64,000 bases of DNA from Patescibacteria group bacterium. GTDB lineage: Bacteria; Patescibacteriota; Patescibacteriia; 2-01-FULL-39-33. Within the stretch, counting starts at the first letter, position 1. Every line of letters begins with the position of its first letter. The stretch spans positions 509,006 through 573,005 of the forward strand of contig JBAZKF010000001.1 in NCBI GenBank assembly GCA_041650895.1, in the 5' to 3' direction. The notes beneath the pieces were generated by a model. That model searched no databases. It saw only the letters and a program-made list of their open reading frames with translations, and had not been told where the DNA came from. Position numbers and translations under genes: made by a program. This document shows, one piece after another, positions 2,487 to 47,478 of this stretch.

Positions 2487-3512
2487 TTATTTTTTTCTTC
2501 CCGCCAATTGCCCGCAGGCGCCGGCAATATCGCCGCCGAGCGATTTGCGGATAGTCGTTTCAATGCCGGAACGGTTTAAAATCATCTTAAAACGCTTGAG
2601 CTGCTCCATGGGTGAAGCCTTAAATCGGCGACTAATCGCCCCGGAACGGGAAATAATCGGGTTATAGGGAATCAAGTTGACCATTACTAGTTTTTTGGGC
2701 AATTGCTCCAAAAGCCTGATCAACTCGTTTGCTTGTTCCGCATCATCATTAACGCCGTCGATCATAACGTACTCAAACATTAACTTGCGACCCCTCTCCT
2801 TCAAATAAGATTTAAGCTGTTGAAACAACTCTGACAGCTTGTAGCTGGAAGAAATCGGCATCAGTTCCCGCCGCAATTCATCGTTGGGCGCATGCAAAGA
2901 AATCGCCAAATTGATCTGTAACGGATAACGAGTAACGTTTTTGAGGCCCTCAATCAGACCGCAAGTAGAAATTGATATGGAACGAGCCGCTAAACCAAAA
3001 CCATCCTTATCGTTAATCAGGTTAATCGCCTCAGCGACATTCGGCCAATTCAAAAGCGGCTCTCCCATGCCCATAAAAACGACATTGTCTATTTTTTTAC
3101 CCTCGGTCTTGAGTTGACGGGCAAAATAAATAACCTGTTCCGCGATCTCTCCGGCTGTCAGGTTGCGTTCAAAACCGTTTTGACCGGTAGCGCAGAACAA
3201 ACAGCCCAAAGGGCAACCGACCTGGGAAGAAACGCAAACCGTATAACGGCCATCGGCATTTTCCAACAGCACCGCTTCAATTACGGCACTGTCAGCCAAT
3301 TTAATCAGTGCTTTGCGGCTTGAATCACTAGCTGTCTCTGTAGCATTAACTTCCAAAGGACAACCGGCTTTGAGTTTCCGCTTTAAATCGGCAGGCAGAG
3401 TGGTGACTTCATCCCAATCACTGATTAATTTCAAATATATCGCCTGTTTGACTTGTTTCAGACGATAAGCGGGCTGACCGGCTAATATTTTATTTAAAGC
3501 TGATAAATCCAT
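2487..3512 (-). CDS. rlmN: 23S rRNA/tRNA (adenine-C2)-methyltransferase, radical SAM
   Basis: CPLGCLFCATG radical-SAM motif and an RlmN-like N-terminus (MDLSALNKILAGQPAYRLKQV). The ATG at 3512 is preferred over the TTG at 3536. Confidence 0.85.
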   Translation of the reverse strand: MDLSALNKILAGQPAYRLKQVKQAIYLKLISDWDEVTTLPADLKRKLKAGCPLEVNATETASDSSRKALIKLADSAVIEAVLLENADGRYTVCVSSQVGCPLGCLFCATGQNGFERNLTAGEIAEQVIYFARQLKTEGKKIDNVVFMGMGEPLLNWPNVAEAINLINDKDGFGLAARSISISTCGLIEGLKNVTRYPLQINLAISLHAPNDELRRELMPISSSYKLSELFQQLKSYLKERGRKLMFEYVMIDGVNDDAEQANELIRLLEQLPKKLVMVNLIPYNPIISRSGAISRRFKASPMEQLKRFKMILNRSGIETTIRKSLGGDIAGACGQLAGRKK

Positions 3513-37965: not shown

Positions 37966-38137
37966 ATGGCATTATCTTAACACAAATAACCTAAAAGCCA
38001 AAACTTCATATTAGTCTCTTGACAGAAGAATTAAAGTATGATAAGATGATGAATCATCAATTATGATGAGTCGCACATTGATTTATCGGCAGTTGGCCAA
38101 AACCAAAACCGCCCCAAGGGGCAAGAAAGGAAAAACG

Positions 38138-38704
38138 ATGACCATTAAAGACCTGAAGAATAAAGCTCTACTGCAAGAACTACTGAACAATCCGGAGCTT
38201 TTGGATAATTTAATAACCGATTTGTCACGGTTAATCAGACGCGAGATCTTGAACCTGACCCCGATAATGGAAAAAGTTGGTTCTTTGGTTGGAGAAGCAT
38301 CTGATGATATTGTTCCGCCTATTACGGACATACTGAATGAACTATTGCCAGCAATTTGCGGTATCGGTGGCACAGCCATAGTAAAAATGAATCCCAGCAT
38401 CATCGCCTTGATTGAGTTCTTCCTGAACGAAATGGTTGATGTCAGCGAGGGCATTGAAGAAGCGCAAGGACGACTCTTCAATGCGCGGGCGCGCCTGAGG
38501 AAAGCACAACTTTACGCATACCTGCATACCGGCGACTTCAATCGTTCCGAAGCTATGGCGCTGGTTCTGGCGGATATGGGCTCAGGCAGTATCATGCCTT
38601 CCGCCAACGAATTCATGCAGGGAGCCAAACAGGGAGCCGAAGCGATCAAAGGCATAGGCGGCAAGGTTAGAGCCGCACACCGTGGCCTATCCCAAAAAGA
38701 GTAA
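38138..38704 (+). CDS. hypothetical protein
   Basis: SD AAAGGAAAAACG precedes the ATG at 38138. 188 aa with no recognisable motif. Confidence 0.45.
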   Translation: MTIKDLKNKALLQELLNNPELLDNLITDLSRLIRREILNLTPIMEKVGSLVGEASDDIVPPITDILNELLPAICGIGGTAIVKMNPSIIALIEFFLNEMVDVSEGIEEAQGRLFNARARLRKAQLYAYLHTGDFNRSEAMALVLADMGSGSIMPSANEFMQGAKQGAEAIKGIGGKVRAAHRGLSQKE

Positions 38705-38728
38705 AAAAGTAACTATAAATCAAACGCA

Positions 38729-38910
38729 CCATACGGAAGCCGCTGGCTTCCGTTTTTATTTTTCAAGCTTTTTACTCCAAATTGCACCAAGTACTTGACA
38801 AAAAGTCAAAAATAACATACCATACGGAAGCCGCTGGCTTCCGTTTTTATTTTTCAAGCTTTTTACTCCAAATTGCACCAAGTACTTGACAAAAAGTCAA
38901 AAATAACATA
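38729..38910 (+). repeat. perfect tandem duplication, 2 x 91 bp, each = terminator hairpin + promoter-like module
   Basis: CCATACGGAAGCCGCTGGCTTCCGTTTTTATTTTTCAAGC...TTGACAAAAAGTCAAAAATAACATA is repeated exactly (38729-38819 and 38820-38910). Confidence 0.85.
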
Positions 38911-38914
38911 TGAT
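38886..38914 (+). promoter_or_regulatory. sigma70-type promoter (TTGACA-17-TATGAT), created at the junction of the second repeat copy
   Basis: ttgaca aaaagtcaaaaataaca tatgat. The first copy has TACCAT instead of a -10 box. Confidence 0.5.
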
Positions 38915-39136
38915 TAACTGATTTAGAACTTTAAAAATTTAAAGGAAACTAAAGGAACACAAAAATCCAAAAGGTAAGGAGCGCGGAATAATGGATAAAA
39001 AGGGAAGAAAAGGAGAAGGAAGAAAGAGAGAATGGATTTCGGCTAAACGGAAAAATAAAAGACCCAAACCAAAGCACCCGGCGGCGGCCATGAAAAAAGC
39101 CAAACGCTACCAACCAAGATAGGGAGAATAACAACT

Positions 39137-39376
39137 ATGCCGAAAGACCAGTCGCCCCAAGAGACCGACCCGATCAGGCAGATCATGGCCGATATGAATA
39201 AAGAAAGATGCCCGGCTTGCGGTGGCACCGGCAGAAAACGCAACTTGGAAGACCCTTATAACCGCAATCAGGCCGACAGCGTATGCCCGACCTGCGGCGG
39301 TAGTGGCAGTAAAGCCACAATCAAAGCCAAACTGGTCAGACCGGTGGCGACGAGACCCCACAAAACACCGGGCTGA
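39137..39376 (+). CDS. small zinc-ribbon protein with two DnaJ-type CxxCxGxG motifs
   Basis: CPACGGTGRK and CPTCGGSGSK motifs. SD AGGGAG upstream. 79 aa. Confidence 0.5.
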   Translation: MPKDQSPQETDPIRQIMADMNKERCPACGGTGRKRNLEDPYNRNQADSVCPTCGGSGSKATIKAKLVRPVATRPHKTPG

Positions 39377-39400
39377 AATCCGGCCGAATAGTACTTTATA

Positions 39401-39430
39401 CCCCAACCGACGAGTTGGGGTTTTATTTTT
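39401..39430 (+). terminator. rho-independent terminator
   Basis: ccccaac-cgacga-gttgggg stem followed by ttttattttt. Confidence 0.65.
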
Positions 39431-39448
39431 GTTACAAAAAAAACAGCC

Positions 39449-39477
39449 TTGACAGCTTTTTATCATTACGCTATATT
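39449..39477 (+). promoter_or_regulatory. sigma70-type promoter of the hrcA operon (TTGACA-17-TATATT)
   Basis: ttgaca gctttttatcattacgc tatatt, immediately 5' of the CIRCE element. Confidence 0.6.
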
Positions 39478-39481
39478 TAAA

Positions 39482-39508
39482 TTAGCACTCTCGCTATTAG
39501 AGTGCTAA
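39482..39508 (+). promoter_or_regulatory. CIRCE operator (HrcA binding site)
   Basis: TTAGCACTC-tcgctatta-GAGTGCTAA is a perfect match to the CIRCE consensus TTAGCACTC-N9-GAGTGCTAA. Confidence 0.9.
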
Positions 39509-39536: not shown

Positions 39537-40229
39537 ATGGAGGCCAGACAGGAACAATTACTCAAAGCCATAGTTGATGAATACGTCAAAACCGCCCAGC
39601 CGGTCGGCTCTTCTCATTTGGTAGAAAAATATTTCCCTGATTTAAGCCCGGCCACCATTCGCAATGAATTGGCAGAACTGGAGAGCCAGGGCCTGATTTA
39701 TCAGCCCCACACCTCCGCCGGCCGAATCCCCACTATTCTGGGTTACCAGTACTATATCAATTATTTCGTCATTGACAGCCATATTTCCGCCAAGGACCGG
39801 CAAGAGTTAAGCGGCCTTAATCTAACCAAAAACCATGAAAGCATCAAAACCTTGGCTAAACAGCTTGCAGGCTTATCCGAACAGACTATTATAATCGCCT
39901 TCTCAGCTAATGATCTGTACTACACCGGCTTATCGCACTTGTTCCGTCAGCCGGAGTTCACCAACCTGTCCCTGGTTTGCACTATGTCCGACATTATTGA
40001 TAACCTGGATCGGGTGATCAATTGGTACTTTCCGCAGGCCGACGAAATGCCGCAAATATTAATCGGCGATACCTGTCCTTTCGGCCGCGACGCTTCAGCT
40101 ATTATCGCTTTGGCCGAATTATCAGGACAACCCTTAGTCATCAGTGTTCTAGGGCCCCTGCGCATGGATTATAAAAGAAACCTGGGACTGATAAAACACG
40201 CGCAAGAATTAATCAATAAAATTAATTAG
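39537..40229 (+). CDS. hrcA: heat-inducible transcription repressor HrcA (short form, 230 aa)
   Basis: N-terminal wHTH (RQEQLLKAIVDEYVKTAQPVGSSHL...ATIRNELAELE..G). It lies downstream of CIRCE and is followed by grpE. Confidence 0.85.
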   Translation: MEARQEQLLKAIVDEYVKTAQPVGSSHLVEKYFPDLSPATIRNELAELESQGLIYQPHTSAGRIPTILGYQYYINYFVIDSHISAKDRQELSGLNLTKNHESIKTLAKQLAGLSEQTIIIAFSANDLYYTGLSHLFRQPEFTNLSLVCTMSDIIDNLDRVINWYFPQADEMPQILIGDTCPFGRDASAIIALAELSGQPLVISVLGPLRMDYKRNLGLIKHAQELINKIN

Positions 40230-41283: not shown

Positions 41284-41640
41284 TCAGGAAAAGCTGGCGA
41301 GCAATATGAGCAATAATCGGCCGAGCAACAAGCCGATTAAAAGCGGCGGCAGAATGTAAAGACATTTCCGAGTCAGTATTTCTTTCGGATACTCAAATCC
41401 GGTAAGACCCGAGAATATTCCTTCTGCAAAAAACCAGCCGAAGGCGATGATTATTACAGCCAGCAGACCATTAAAGAACATACAGAGAAATCCCGCGATC
41501 ATCGCAGGAATGCCGTACAAGCTTTGCCAGGTCCCAAATTTAGGTTGTTGGAACCCGATGTTCTCTAATAAGAAATACTTCCCGAAAACATAAACGATGG
41601 CTATCGTAACGACGATTTGCAATATCTGCAAGATCTGCAT
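41284..41640 (-). CDS. small membrane protein, hypothetical
   Basis: 118 aa with 3-4 TM helices. Confidence 0.4.
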   Translation of the reverse strand: MQILQILQIVVTIAIVYVFGKYFLLENIGFQQPKFGTWQSLYGIPAMIAGFLCMFFNGLLAVIIIAFGWFFAEGIFSGLTGFEYPKEILTRKCLYILPPLLIGLLLGRLLLILLASFS

Positions 41641-42010: not shown

Positions 42011-43927
42011 ATGTCAAAAATCCTAGGAATTGATTTGGGCACGACCAACTCGTGCATGGCTGTAATCGAAGGGGGACAGCCGAAAGTATTAGAAAACAAA
42101 GAGGGCGCGCGCACTACGCCATCCATTATCGCGCAAACTAAAGCCGGCGAACGCCTGGTAGGCATCGCCGCCAAGCGCCAAGCAGTTACCAACCCAACCA
42201 GCACTCTTTTCTCCATTAAGCGCTTGATTGGACGAGCTTTCACCGACAGCGAGGTGCAACGCGATATCACCCTGATGCCTTTTAAGATCGTTAAAGCCGG
42301 CAACGGCGTCAAGATTGAAATGGGCGATAAGGAATACAGCCCGCAAGAAATCTCGGCTATGACTTTAACCAAACTCAAAGAAGACGCTGAAGCCAAACTG
42401 GGAGAAAAAATCACCGAAGCGGTCATTACCGTACCGGCTTATTTTGACGACGCCCAGCGCCAAGCCACCAAGGACGCCGGTGAAATCGCGGGCTTAAAAG
42501 TCTTGCGCATCATCAATGAACCGACCGCGGCGGCTTTGGCTTACGGTTTTGAAAAGAAAAAGGGCCAGCAGATCGCCGTTTACGATTTGGGCGGCGGCAC
42601 TTTTGATATTTCCATCCTTGATGTCTCCGCCGACACCGTAGAAGTCAAATCCACTAACGGCGACACTCATTTAGGCGGTGATGATTTTGATTTGAAAATC
42701 ATGAATTGGATTATTGATGAATTCAAAAAACAAGAAGGCATTGATTTATCCAAGGATGTTACGGCTTTGCAACGCGTCAAGGAAGCGGCCGAAAAAGCCA
42801 AGATTGAACTTTCCACGCAAATGGAAACGGAAATCAATCAGCCCTTCATCACTATGGGCGCTGACAGCTCTCCCAAACACTTGAACATCCGCGTCAGCCG
42901 TTCCCAATTGGAATCCCTGGTCGGCGGTTTAGTTGAACAGACCTTTGAACCGGTCAAAAAAGCTTTAGCCGACGCCAATATGTCCGCTAAGGATATAGAA
43001 GAAATCGTCATGGTCGGCGGCATGACCCGCATGCCCTTAGTTCAGAAAAAGGTTGAGGAATTCTTCGGCAAAAAACCCAATATCTCCGTCAATCCTGATG
43101 AGGTTGTGGCCTTGGGCGCGGCCGTACAAGCCGGCGTATTGCAAGGTGATGTCAAAGACGTCTTACTGCTTGATGTTACTCCTTTGACTCTGGGACTGGA
43201 AACTTTAGGCGGCGTTATGACGCCGTTAATTGATAGAAATACTACCATCCCGACTTCCAAAAGCCAGATATTCTCCACTGCGGCCGATAATCAGCCGGGC
43301 GTGGAAATCCATGTCTTGCAAGGCGAGCGCCCTATGGCTACTGATAACAAGACTTTGGGCAGATTCATGTTGGATGGTATTCCGCCGGCGCCTCGCGGCG
43401 TGCCACAGATTGAAGTAACTTTTGATATTGACGCCAATGGTATCTTGAATGTCAAAGCGCAGGACAAGGCCACCAGCCGCGAACAAAAGATCACCATTAC
43501 CGCCTCTTCCGCCCTATCTAAAGAGGATATTGAGAAGATGAAAAAAGATGCGGAACTCAACGCTGAAGCTGATAAACAGAAACGCGAATTGATTGATTTG
43601 AAAAACCAAGCCGAATCCTTGGTCTTCACCTGCGAAAAAACCCTGAGAGACGCGGGTGATAAAGTATCGGCCGATGACAGGAAGAATGTAATGGATAAAG
43701 TTGAAGACTTAAAGAAGGCCAAAGACGGAACAGATAAGGATTTGATCAAAAAAAACTATGACGCCTTATCCGAGACTATCCAAAAAATCGGCGCGGCCAT
43801 GTACCAGCAACAAGCCGGGCCGTCCAACGGTACCAGAGCCACCGAGGCAGAATCGCCCCAAGGCGCTGCCGAAGCCGGAACTGCGGGTGAACCGGTAGAA
43901 GCGCAATATGAGGAAGTCAAGAAATAA
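42011..43927 (+). CDS. dnaK: molecular chaperone DnaK (Hsp70)
   Basis: [16 protein letters not shown] and a full Hsp70 NBD and SBD with EEVKK-type C-terminus. Confidence 0.97.
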
Positions 43928-46383: not shown

Positions 46384-47478
46384 ATGGCTCAAGACTATTA
46401 TAAAACTCTCGGCATAGACAAATCCGCCTCGGCGGATGAGATTAAGCGCGCCTTCCGCAAGCTGGCTCATGAGTATCATCCCGATAAAAAAACCGGCAAC
46501 GCAGAAAAGTTTAAAGAGATCAATGAAGCCTACCAGACGCTTAGCAATGAAGGCAAACGCCGGCAATACGATCAATTCGGCCAAGCCTTCACCGGCGCCG
46601 GCCCCCGGCCTGGTAGCGGGCATTATGGCGGTAATCCTTTCGGCCAGGGTTTTAACGGCTTCAATCAAGGCAATGTCAATTTTGATTTCGGCGATGTCGG
46701 CGATTTAGGCGACATCTTTGGCAGTTTTTTCGGTGGCGCGACTGGCGGTCGCCAAACTCCCCGACGCGGCGCCGATTTGCAAACTGAACTGATCATTGAT
46801 TTCAAAGAAGCCGTTTTCGGCGCAGAAAAAACCATTGAACTCAATAAACAAGTTGTCTGCGATACTTGCAACGGCACCGGCGCTGAACCGGACAGCAAAG
46901 TCAATGCTTGTAAAACCTGTAACGGCCACGGCCGCGTCATCCGGGCGCAACAGACTTTCCTGGGAACAATCCAAACAGAAGCGACTTGTCCTGATTGCCA
47001 AGGTGCCGGCCAAGTGCCGGAAAAAAAATGCCATAAATGCCATGGCAACGGGCATATTAGGGGCAATGAAAAAATAAAAATAACTATTCCGGCAGGCATT
47101 GATGATGGCCAATCCTTACGCCTCTCGGGCCAAGGCGAGGCCGGAGAAAAAGGCCAGTCCGGCGACTTGCTGGTTCGCATTCGCGTCCGGCCTCATCCTA
47201 AATTCCACCGCGACGGCTTTAATATTTATTCCTCCCATCACCTCTCAATCAAGCAAGCTGTTTTGGGCGATAAAGTAGAGATAGAAACCATTGACGGCTT
47301 AATCAATTTAAGAATACCCGAGGGAACCCAAGGTCAAACCAAATTCAAACTGCCGGGCAAAGGCGTGACACATCTCAATTCCCGCGGACGCGGCGATCAG
47401 ATAGTTGAAGTCATAGTGGACATCCCCAAAAACCTCGGACGTCAGCAGAAAAAAATACTAGAACAATTAGACATATAA
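46384..47478 (+). CDS. dnaJ: chaperone DnaJ
   Basis: J-domain with HPD (YHPDKK), G/F region, and four CxxCxGxG zinc-finger repeats. Confidence 0.95.
   Translation: MAQDYYKTLGIDKSASADEIKRAFRKLAHEYHPDKKTGNAEKFKEINEAYQTLSNEGKRRQYDQFGQAFTGAGPRPGSGHYGGNPFGQGFNGFNQGNVNFDFGDVGDLGDIFGSFFGGATGGRQTPRRGADLQTELIIDFKEAVFGAEKTIELNKQVVCDTCNGTGAEPDSKVNACKTCNGHGRVIRAQQTFLGTIQTEATCPDCQGAGQVPEKKCHKCHGNGHIRGNEKIKITIPAGIDDGQSLRLSGQGEAGEKGQSGDLLVRIRVRPHPKFHRDGFNIYSSHHLSIKQAVLGDKVEIETIDGLINLRIPEGTQGQTKFKLPGKGVTHLNSRGRGDQIVEVIVDIPKNLGRQQKKILEQLDI

Follow-up and report, generated by a model that had tools for sequence, protein, structure and literature searches.

Between the DNA repair gene ruvB and the heat-shock genes of a Patescibacteria group bacterium lie two very small open reading frames, the first encoding a lysine- and arginine-rich peptide of 43 amino acids and the second a protein of 79 amino acids that carries two cysteine motifs of the DnaJ type. 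The question raised by this locus is whether these mini-ORFs are genuine genes and, if they are, whether their products belong with the heat-shock machinery encoded next to them or act elsewhere. An earlier note on this DNA took the former path, suggesting an uncharacterized mini-chaperone or a holdase accessory to the HrcA regulon. The locus was analysed within a window of 64,000 nucleotides (64 kb), the whole stretch of DNA under study; all positions below refer to this window, and the features are on the forward strand unless stated otherwise.

The most upstream gene in the order considered here, a 213-aa ORF with no assigned function (38063-38704), is followed by a tandem duplication of 91 nt (38723-38813 and 38814-38904). 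Each copy consists of a terminator hairpin (38733-38753 and 38824-38844, respectively) with the T-run that follows it, a TTGACA -35 element and a spacer. A good -10 element, TATGAT, follows the second copy only, completing the main promoter of the mini-operon (TTGACA-17-TATGAT, 38886-38914), whereas the first copy gets TACCAT from the duplication junction and, by sequence match, forms a weaker upstream twin (38795-38823). The -35 element, spacer and -10 element of the main promoter are conserved in three of the related sequences described below (L001, L005 and L016). The ‘duplicated promoter' of the earlier note thus corresponds to a real tandem duplication, but the duplicated unit is a terminator with a -35 element and a spacer, and the good -10 occurs once. 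The two copies are identical except at the junction, so that the duplication is either very recent or an assembly artefact; it is absent from all relatives, which possess a single copy. RNA made from the proximal promoter would be expected to have its 5' end in the second hairpin, within the left arm, in which case it might escape that terminator, and both copies could contribute.

Downstream of the main promoter, an A-rich 5' leader (38921-38990) contains the Shine-Dalgarno (SD) sequence AAGGAG (38976-38981), separated by a 9-nt spacer from the ATG of the peptide gene (38991-39122). The leader, conserved like the promoter, folds no more stably than shuffled sequences (z = -0.89), and the 5' region scores well short of every Rfam threshold; an RNA thermometer or a riboswitch was rejected on these grounds. 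The stop codon of the peptide gene (TAG, 39120-39122) directly abuts the SD sequence GGAG (39123-39126) of the 79-aa ORF (39137-39376), and the latter is followed by an intrinsic terminator (39400-39431) comprising a hairpin (39400-39421) and a T-run. This hairpin is retained in five lineages, with two compensatory pairs. As had been noticed previously, the mini-operon ends just 5' of the hrcA promoter (TTGACA-17-TATATT, 39449-39477), a separate element that, like the perfect CIRCE operator TTAGCACTC-N9-GAGTGCTAA (39482-39508), lies outside the mini-operon; hrcA (230 aa), grpE, hsp20 and dnaK follow the operator in this order. Judging from these signals, the two mini-ORFs share one predicted promoter and one predicted terminator. 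A 119-aa ORF on the opposite strand (39107-39466, minus strand) is not kept in the relatives and was judged to be spurious.

Orthologues of both mini-ORFs are found in Candidatus Buchananbacteria WCT16 (L001, L002, L003, L006 and L015) and in Patescibacteria WC668 (L004, L005 and L014). The gene order in these two lineages is ruvB (on the opposite strand), a gene of 178-186 codons, the peptide (40 aa), the zinc finger (80 aa), hrcA, grpE, hsp20 and dnaK; in L001, a 177-aa ORF with a duplicated target is inserted between the peptide gene and the zinc-finger gene. Both ORFs of the window are already annotated by NCBI as hypothetical proteins, and the product of the second one is identical to ‘MAG: hypothetical protein WC473_02675 [Patescibacteria group bacterium]', encoded on a contig of 957,791 bp. 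The families are extremely small: a search of 5.8 billion proteins retrieves three proteins with the 79-aa query and three with the peptide. When 1.84 billion cluster representatives were searched exhaustively with a profile HMM, a single cluster was obtained at E < 1e-10, the remainder being motif-level matches to repetitive CxxCxGxG proteins, with the exception of one distant homologue, P0011 (see below). Scans of genomes, metagenomes and viral contigs add no lineage to the same three and otherwise recover generic zinc fingers, such as the N-terminus of primase, and multi-repeat proteins. The conservation beside hrcA in related genomes to which the earlier note had looked is, accordingly, seen in three lineages, but these form a very narrow and fully syntenic clade; because the entire neighbourhood is syntenic in this clade, the proximity of hrcA says little about function.

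The 79-aa protein evolves as a functional protein would. Its orthologues are 68–70% identical to it, and the pairwise dN/dS values of 0.13-0.22 (at dS of ~0.8-1.3) indicate that the gene is under purifying selection. All cysteines and glycines of the two motifs are invariant in the three orthologues, as are an N-terminal helix (DPxRxIMADxNKE) and a C-terminal tail (SKATxxAKL...PHK); in an eight-sequence alignment that includes P0011, the four cysteines and three glycines (G30, G55 and G57) are invariant. The protein, with a pI of 9.5, is basic like the peptide and consists of the helix, two knuckles of the form CxxCGGxG and the basic tail. Both motifs are perfect and are located where they had been described, CPACGGTG at 39209-39232 (C25-G32) and CPTCGGSG at 39284-39307 (C50-G57). 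Six-frame translation of the 64-kb window contains six CxxCxGxG motifs, four in DnaJ and two in this ORF, compared with a mean of 0.38 in shuffled sequences.

The description of the protein as half of a DnaJ cysteine-rich domain is apt, given that it aligns to positions 14-54 of the 65 in PF00684 (DnaJ_CXXCXGXG) and to motifs 2-3, i.e. zinc centre II, of the DnaJ encoded in the same window. By analogy with what is established for the cysteine-rich domain of DnaJ and for Anti-TRAP (PMC2896485), the four invariant cysteines in the two knuckles would form a single Zn(Cys)4 centre. Structure prediction with AlphaFold2 gave a mean pLDDT of 50.1 with a three-sequence alignment and 52.9 with a six-sequence alignment, values that lend no support to any fold, and a sequence search of the PDB returned only spurious matches to C2H2 zinc fingers.

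The case for the peptide has to be made on different grounds. The ORF starts at ATG 38991 behind AAGGAG, as reported before, and its product (pI 11.7) contains 19 lysines and arginines among its 43 residues. The pure purine tract within the gene, previously given as 38 nt, measures 36 nt (38997-39032) and is the longest purine run in the 64-kb window; it includes a lineage-specific, in-frame expansion of 15 nt of the slippage type. This expansion, the low complexity and fast evolution of the N-terminal half, the scarcity of T in the region (8-12%), due to which open frames arise easily, and the contact between the peptide stop codon and the SD sequence of the zinc-finger gene are all compatible with the possibility that this segment is a purine-rich leader, translated or not, which only tunes the expression of the zinc-finger gene and yields no functional peptide. 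Under this interpretation, however, there would be little reason for the substitutions in the C-terminal 20 codons to fall mostly in third positions (2/1/8 and 2/5/10), for the ATG, the SD sequence, the spacing and the frame to be kept in all lineages, or for the ORF to stay intact in L001, where the 177-aa gene parts it from the zinc finger. Furthermore, the indels in the gene (15 nt and 3 nt) are in frame, no other frame stays open in every lineage, the 40-aa homologues share the C-terminal motif PKxPxxxMKKAxRY, and the peptide is possibly related to the tail of a protein encoded elsewhere (see below). The overall dN/dS of 0.27-0.81 is noisy over ~40 codons. The 43-aa ORF is, then, likely to be coding, and a leader with no functional peptide seems unlikely.

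Taken together, these observations support the view that both mini-ORFs are genuine conserved genes, and we consider their reality and their operon architecture to be highly probable.

What the genes are for is best approached from the position that they occupy. The mini-ORFs are seen beside hrcA only at HrcA identities to the window of 87% or more; L016-L027, with HrcA identities of 50–77%, lack the pair in front of hrcA. At 76–77% HrcA identity, the homologous slot contains an RNA ligase gene and other small ORFs. L016 has, in this order, a gene homologous to the 213-aa gene (37% identity), the same promoter and leader start (TTGACA...TATAAT, GATTTxGAACTTTAAAA) and a gene for a T4 Rnl1-like RNA ligase (PF09511, 47 bits), the stop codon of which shares an ATGA with the start codon of a 67-aa zinc-finger ORF that is not annotated (CPKCQGRCW...CDRCQGTGRVYIR); a terminator and CIRCE-hrcA lie downstream. 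This zinc finger is only ~27% identical to the 79-aa protein and may not be orthologous to it. In L017 and L018, the ligase gene is accompanied by an unrelated 108-aa ORF, and where HrcA identity falls to ~50%, hrcA is preceded by unrelated genes (gyrB, MacB and others). On this comparison, the position upstream of hrcA is a cargo slot whose content varies between a promoter and a terminator that are conserved, as opposed to a conserved functional linkage.

RNA ligase turns up again next to the one credible distant homologue of the 79-aa protein, P0011, a 64-aa protein detected with E = 1.7e-4 against the whole 1.84-billion library (40% identity in the alignment, 33% by tblastn). P0011 has the layout helix, CPxCxGxGK, spacer, CPKCGGSGTKATIKVELIK, and has a tail in common with the 79-aa protein, CGGSGxKATIKxxLI. 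Its gene is located on a 1.6-kb contig (L013), 3' of a fragment, the 3' end, of an Rnl1-like ligase gene that is 64% identical to the L016 ligase, and of a gene for a 109-aa cysteine-containing protein. It is followed by a gene for a 92-aa basic protein, whose stop codon overlaps the ATG (again as ATGA) of a second small zinc finger. The genes of this contig are small and tightly packed. The C-terminal tail of the 92-aa protein, VSAKNNRKKPAPAMPRPKKRRS, resembles the peptide: among 300 composition-preserving shuffles in each case, the score was reached by none for the L005 peptide, by 1 for that of L001 and by 17 for that of the window, which makes the resemblance of the window peptide a weak one. 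A module in which a basic peptide is followed by a coupled CxxCxGxG protein thus appears to recur, twice with an RNA ligase, the ligase association being that of two short contigs from outgroups only. The 64-kb window contains no RNA ligase gene. The idea that the peptide itself is a decayed 3' remnant of an RNA ligase gene was dropped because the alignment scores are at the level of shuffles.

The explanation that fits these observations best, and that we advance tentatively as falling somewhat short of probable, is an autonomous operon for a polybasic peptide and a zinc knuckle, sitting in a cargo slot and associated with nucleic acids more than with proteostasis. The slot would extend from the conserved 213-aa gene to the hrcA promoter, and the operon within it would comprise a sigma-70-type promoter, the A-rich leader, the peptide gene, the translationally coupled gene for the 79-aa protein and the intrinsic terminator, with expression that would be constitutive and independent of HrcA. 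The 79-aa protein most likely binds one Zn(II) via its four invariant cysteines, forming a single knuckle similar to zinc centre II of DnaJ and to Anti-TRAP, flanked by the N-terminal helix and the basic tail, whereas the 43-aa peptide would be a disordered polycation. The two basic products may work together, their target being either a nucleic acid (probably RNA) or a partner that handles RNA; they probably do not serve as a holdase or an HrcA accessory. The RNA side is preferred because the outgroup unit encodes an Rnl1-like ligase together with a CxxCxGxx protein and because P0011 adjoins a ligase gene and a pair of basic and zinc-finger proteins; resting as it does on association, a function connected with nucleic acids or RNA is conceivable and less firmly held than the overall scheme. 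A counterpoint comes from characterized stand-alone proteins with the same motif, Anti-TRAP (PMC2896485) and ZnJ2/BSD2 (PMC5818400), which act on proteins, not on nucleic acids.

A variable slot could also harbour genes with no role in the host. In this case, the zinc-ribbon protein would be ‘moron' cargo derived from a phage or another mobile element, for example, a restriction-alleviation or antiterminator-like protein, that landed in a recombination-prone site. The slot content does differ among close relatives, a duplication (91 nt) and an insertion (177 aa, with its target duplicated) have left scars, the small genes of L013 are tightly packed, and there are weak matches to phage families, namely phrog_6060 (‘Q-like', 3.8e-5), a Lar-like family (0.025) and NCBIfam ECs_2282 (3.2e-4). 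All these matches, however, are driven by the Cys/Gly motif, as are the other weak hits from NCBIfam, PHROG and PADLOC, which include DnaJ_bact and PDC-M01B; with regard to membership in a defence system, PADLOC yields only such motif-driven matches. The flanks are free of phage genes, integrase and transposase included, the viral-contig scan gave generic zinc-finger matches only, and purifying selection on the zinc finger extends across three lineages, all of which makes an origin as phage cargo without a host role doubtful. A precursor of a ribosomally synthesized and modified peptide, along the lines of the Zn-tetracysteine cysimiditides (bioRxiv 10.1101/2024.10.02.616296), was considered as well and rejected, there being no modifying enzyme nearby.

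The link to the heat-shock genes fares worse. A scan of the 64 kb for CIRCE, allowing up to three mismatches, finds one match, the operator of hrcA itself, which is downstream of the mini-operon terminator; there is none at the mini-operon promoter. Co-transcription with hrcA is not indicated either, given the terminator and the separate hrcA promoter that intervene in the sequence. The mini-operon is, therefore, probably not part of the HrcA regulon. The 79-aa protein might still be a mini-chaperone or holdase, or an accessory of DnaK or HrcA, that is, a free half of the DnaJ cysteine-rich domain encoded beside the heat-shock genes. In favour of such a role one can cite the DnaJ-type motifs, with DnaJ_CXXCXGXG as the best Pfam match (28.5 bits, E 1.9e-6), the alignment to zinc centre II of the DnaJ of the same genome, the position directly 5' of hrcA-grpE-hsp20, which the zinc-finger gene takes in each of its three lineages, and the existence in plastids of CxxCxGxG holdases that lack a J domain (PMC5818400). 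The Pfam score, however, is below the gathering threshold of 32.7, with only two of the four motifs present, and the score against TIGR02349 (DnaJ_bact) is 23.6, compared with a cut-off of 377. Moreover, the window already encodes a complete type-I DnaJ (46384-47478), with the J domain, the cysteine-rich domain (profile positions 1-65 of 65 matched, 65 bits) and the C-terminal domain all present, so that the 79-aa protein does not replace a missing domain. Nor is it a recent duplicate of the cysteine-rich region of this DnaJ, to which it is only 32% identical over 34 aa. The 230-aa form of HrcA, together with grpE and dnaK, is widespread across Patescibacteria (2023 matches), whereas the 79-aa protein does not extend beyond a single tiny clade, and the nearest outgroup fills the slot with an RNA ligase. 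With its own promoter and a conserved terminator, no CIRCE, a full DnaJ nearby and a slot whose content varies in the relatives, the mini-operon offers little room for the mini-chaperone or HrcA-accessory role envisaged in the earlier note, and we regard such a role as distinctly unlikely.

Equally poor are the prospects of an antagonist similar to Anti-TRAP or HagF, a zinc-oligomerizing knuckle protein that would inactivate a regulator, possibly HrcA, with the peptide as a co-factor or leader: the architecture of a small stand-alone protein with exactly two CXXCXGXG motifs (PMC2896485), a weak Pfam match to Anti-TRAP, the adjoining hrcA gene and the precedent of the lineage-specific small HrcA antagonist HagF in Chlamydia (PMC12154930) speak for it, but the profile scores are below the cut-offs (20.9 bits against 32 for Anti-TRAP, PF15777, and 13.8 against 65 for RtpA, NF058604), the motif spacing differs, a basic tail takes the place where a trimerization helix is expected, HagF is itself HrcA-repressed whereas the mini-operon lacks CIRCE, and there is no evidence of a partner. 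The more specific version of this idea, in which the peptide and the knuckle would be a lineage-specific, constitutive, post-translational modulator of these ultra-small bacteria that acts by binding to the minimal 230-aa HrcA or to DnaK, is the least probable of all.

The reading that we prefer, an autonomous operon in a cargo slot with an RNA-side role, would, if true, bring two partners together in a new pairing, a polycationic micro-protein and a DnaJ-type knuckle with one zinc, and would connect this pairing with the Rnl1-type RNA ligases of Candidate Phyla Radiation bacteria. To our knowledge, RNA repair and small proteins are essentially unexplored in these bacteria. For now, what is well supported is an orphan operon of two genes, present in three groundwater MAGs that are close relatives. 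The locus also cautions against reading a shared regulon into a position beside hrcA when the genomes compared are fully syntenic, and it draws attention to small CxxCxGxG ORFs beside RNA ligase genes that annotation misses, such as the 67-aa ORF of L016.

How, then, does the 79-aa protein compare with the known proteins that carry this motif? With the DnaJ cysteine-rich domain it shares the motif in two perfect copies and the limited identity to the DnaJ of the window given above, but it represents half of that domain, with one predicted zinc centre and two motifs against two centres and four motifs, and it is a stand-alone ORF, without the J domain, the G/F region and the C-terminal substrate domains. 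A relationship to the Hsp70 escort protein Hep1/Zim17 (zf-DNL) is not apparent, this family being missing from the best 25 of the 34 that Pfam gave with an E value of 1 or below. The phage zinc-ribbons (phrog_6060, Lar-like and ECs_2282) are similar in size and in the CxxC...CxxC layout, and the clusters of L013 resemble phage early regions; nevertheless, all the matches are below the curated cut-offs and the window lacks a phage context.

The plastid proteins BSD2 and ZnJ2 are J-less, stand-alone CXXCXGXG proteins for which zinc binding and holdase activity have been shown (PMC5818400); they differ from the 79-aa protein in having four motifs and two zinc centres and in being eukaryotic and plastid-targeted, and no sequence relationship to them was found beyond the motif. 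HagF of Chlamydia, a small and lineage-restricted antagonist of HrcA that is repressed by HrcA itself (PMC12154930), has no sequence relationship to the 79-aa protein, and the mini-operon has no CIRCE through which it could be controlled in the same manner.

Anti-TRAP binds TRAP as a zinc-dependent trimer or dodecamer. Its inter-motif spacer is ~14 residues, compared with 25 residues in the 79-aa protein, which, in addition, possesses a helix at its N-terminus and, at its C-terminus, a basic tail where Anti-TRAP has a trimerization helix. The genomic setting is different as well: the mini-operon lacks the T-box and the at-operon context, and its knuckle protein is paired with a polybasic peptide. 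All the same, Anti-TRAP (AT, RtpA) of Bacillus, a 53-aa protein with two CXXCXGXG motifs, one zinc and similarity to the DnaJ cysteine-rich domain, which forms zinc-dependent oligomers and antagonizes a regulator but is no chaperone (PMC2896485), is, by sequence, the closest architectural analogue of the 79-aa protein, even though membership in its family fails on the profile thresholds. Placed among these proteins, the locus reads as an orphan, lineage-restricted two-gene operon that encodes a variant of the small stand-alone CxxCxGxG zinc-knuckle proteins.

The variable slot, the region upstream of hrcA that differs in content among relatives, has a stable left edge. This edge is the gene for a 213-aa protein (window 38063-38704; counterpart at 379-1122 in L016, the nearest-outgroup locus), which retains its position in every lineage, even where identity falls to 37%, and is fast-evolving, with a dN/dS of about 0.45. 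The protein shares a conserved core, LLPAIxGIGGTAI...NPSIIALIEF, and has no match among the families of Pfam, NCBIfam, PHROGs and PADLOC. Its first 25 codons (38063-38137; MMSRTLIYRQLAKTKTAPRGKKGK) correspond in L005, the Patescibacteria WC668 locus, to a separate 31-aa ORF (3027-3122), with the main gene starting later. In the window, the real start may be the ATG at 38138, preceded by a conserved mini-ORF or a structured leader with a GC hairpin at 38109-38124.

Immediately downstream lies a 91-nt tandem duplication (38723-38904), with a unit consisting of a terminator, a promoter -35 element and a spacer, which is confined to the genome of the window as compared with the relatives and yields two serial terminators 3' of the 213-aa gene along with an extra, weaker promoter. 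Apart from the junction, where one reads AACGCA and the other AACATA, the two copies are identical, pointing to a recent event mediated by microhomology or else to an assembly artefact.

In the Buchananbacteria loci (L001, L002, L003, L006 and L015), the peptide and zinc-finger genes of the mini-operon are separated by a 177-aa Cys-rich ORF (5465-5998 in L001), without a match in Pfam, NCBIfam or PHROG. The 12 C-terminal residues of this ORF, KKIKRRQPKRGE, resemble the C-terminus of the L005 peptide, KKAKRYQPTQGE, so that the insertion duplicated approximately 30 nt of its target, including the SD/stop GGAGAATAA.

In L016, an unannotated 67-aa ORF (2518-2721; CPKCQGRC...CDRCQGTG) overlaps by ATGA the stop of the T4 Rnl1-like RNA ligase gene (1286-2521), and its predicted promoter and leader are homologous to those of the window mini-operon. 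Gene callers may systematically omit small zinc-finger ORFs next to RNA ligases. The short L013 contig (1-1567) encompasses an RNA ligase 3' end followed by genes for a 109-aa Cys protein, P0011 (the 64-aa distant homologue of the 79-aa zinc-finger protein), a 92-aa basic protein and, joined to the latter by another ATGA overlap, a second zinc finger (1279-1437); no CIRCE was found at its 3' end.

The window contains a single CIRCE (39482-39508). Neither dnaK (42011-43927), separated from hrcA-grpE-hsp20 by a minus-strand 118-aa ORF (41284-41640), nor dnaJ (46384-47478) has one at up to three mismatches, and the HrcA regulon may accordingly be confined to hrcA-grpE-hsp20, plus anything outside the window. 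The hrcA gene itself (39537-40229) encodes a protein of just 230 aa that aligns with no more than the C-terminal portion of the HrcA domain in Pfam, with an additional weak winged helix match. Such a short HrcA is the usual form in Patescibacteria, where homologues of 225-235 aa number about 2000.
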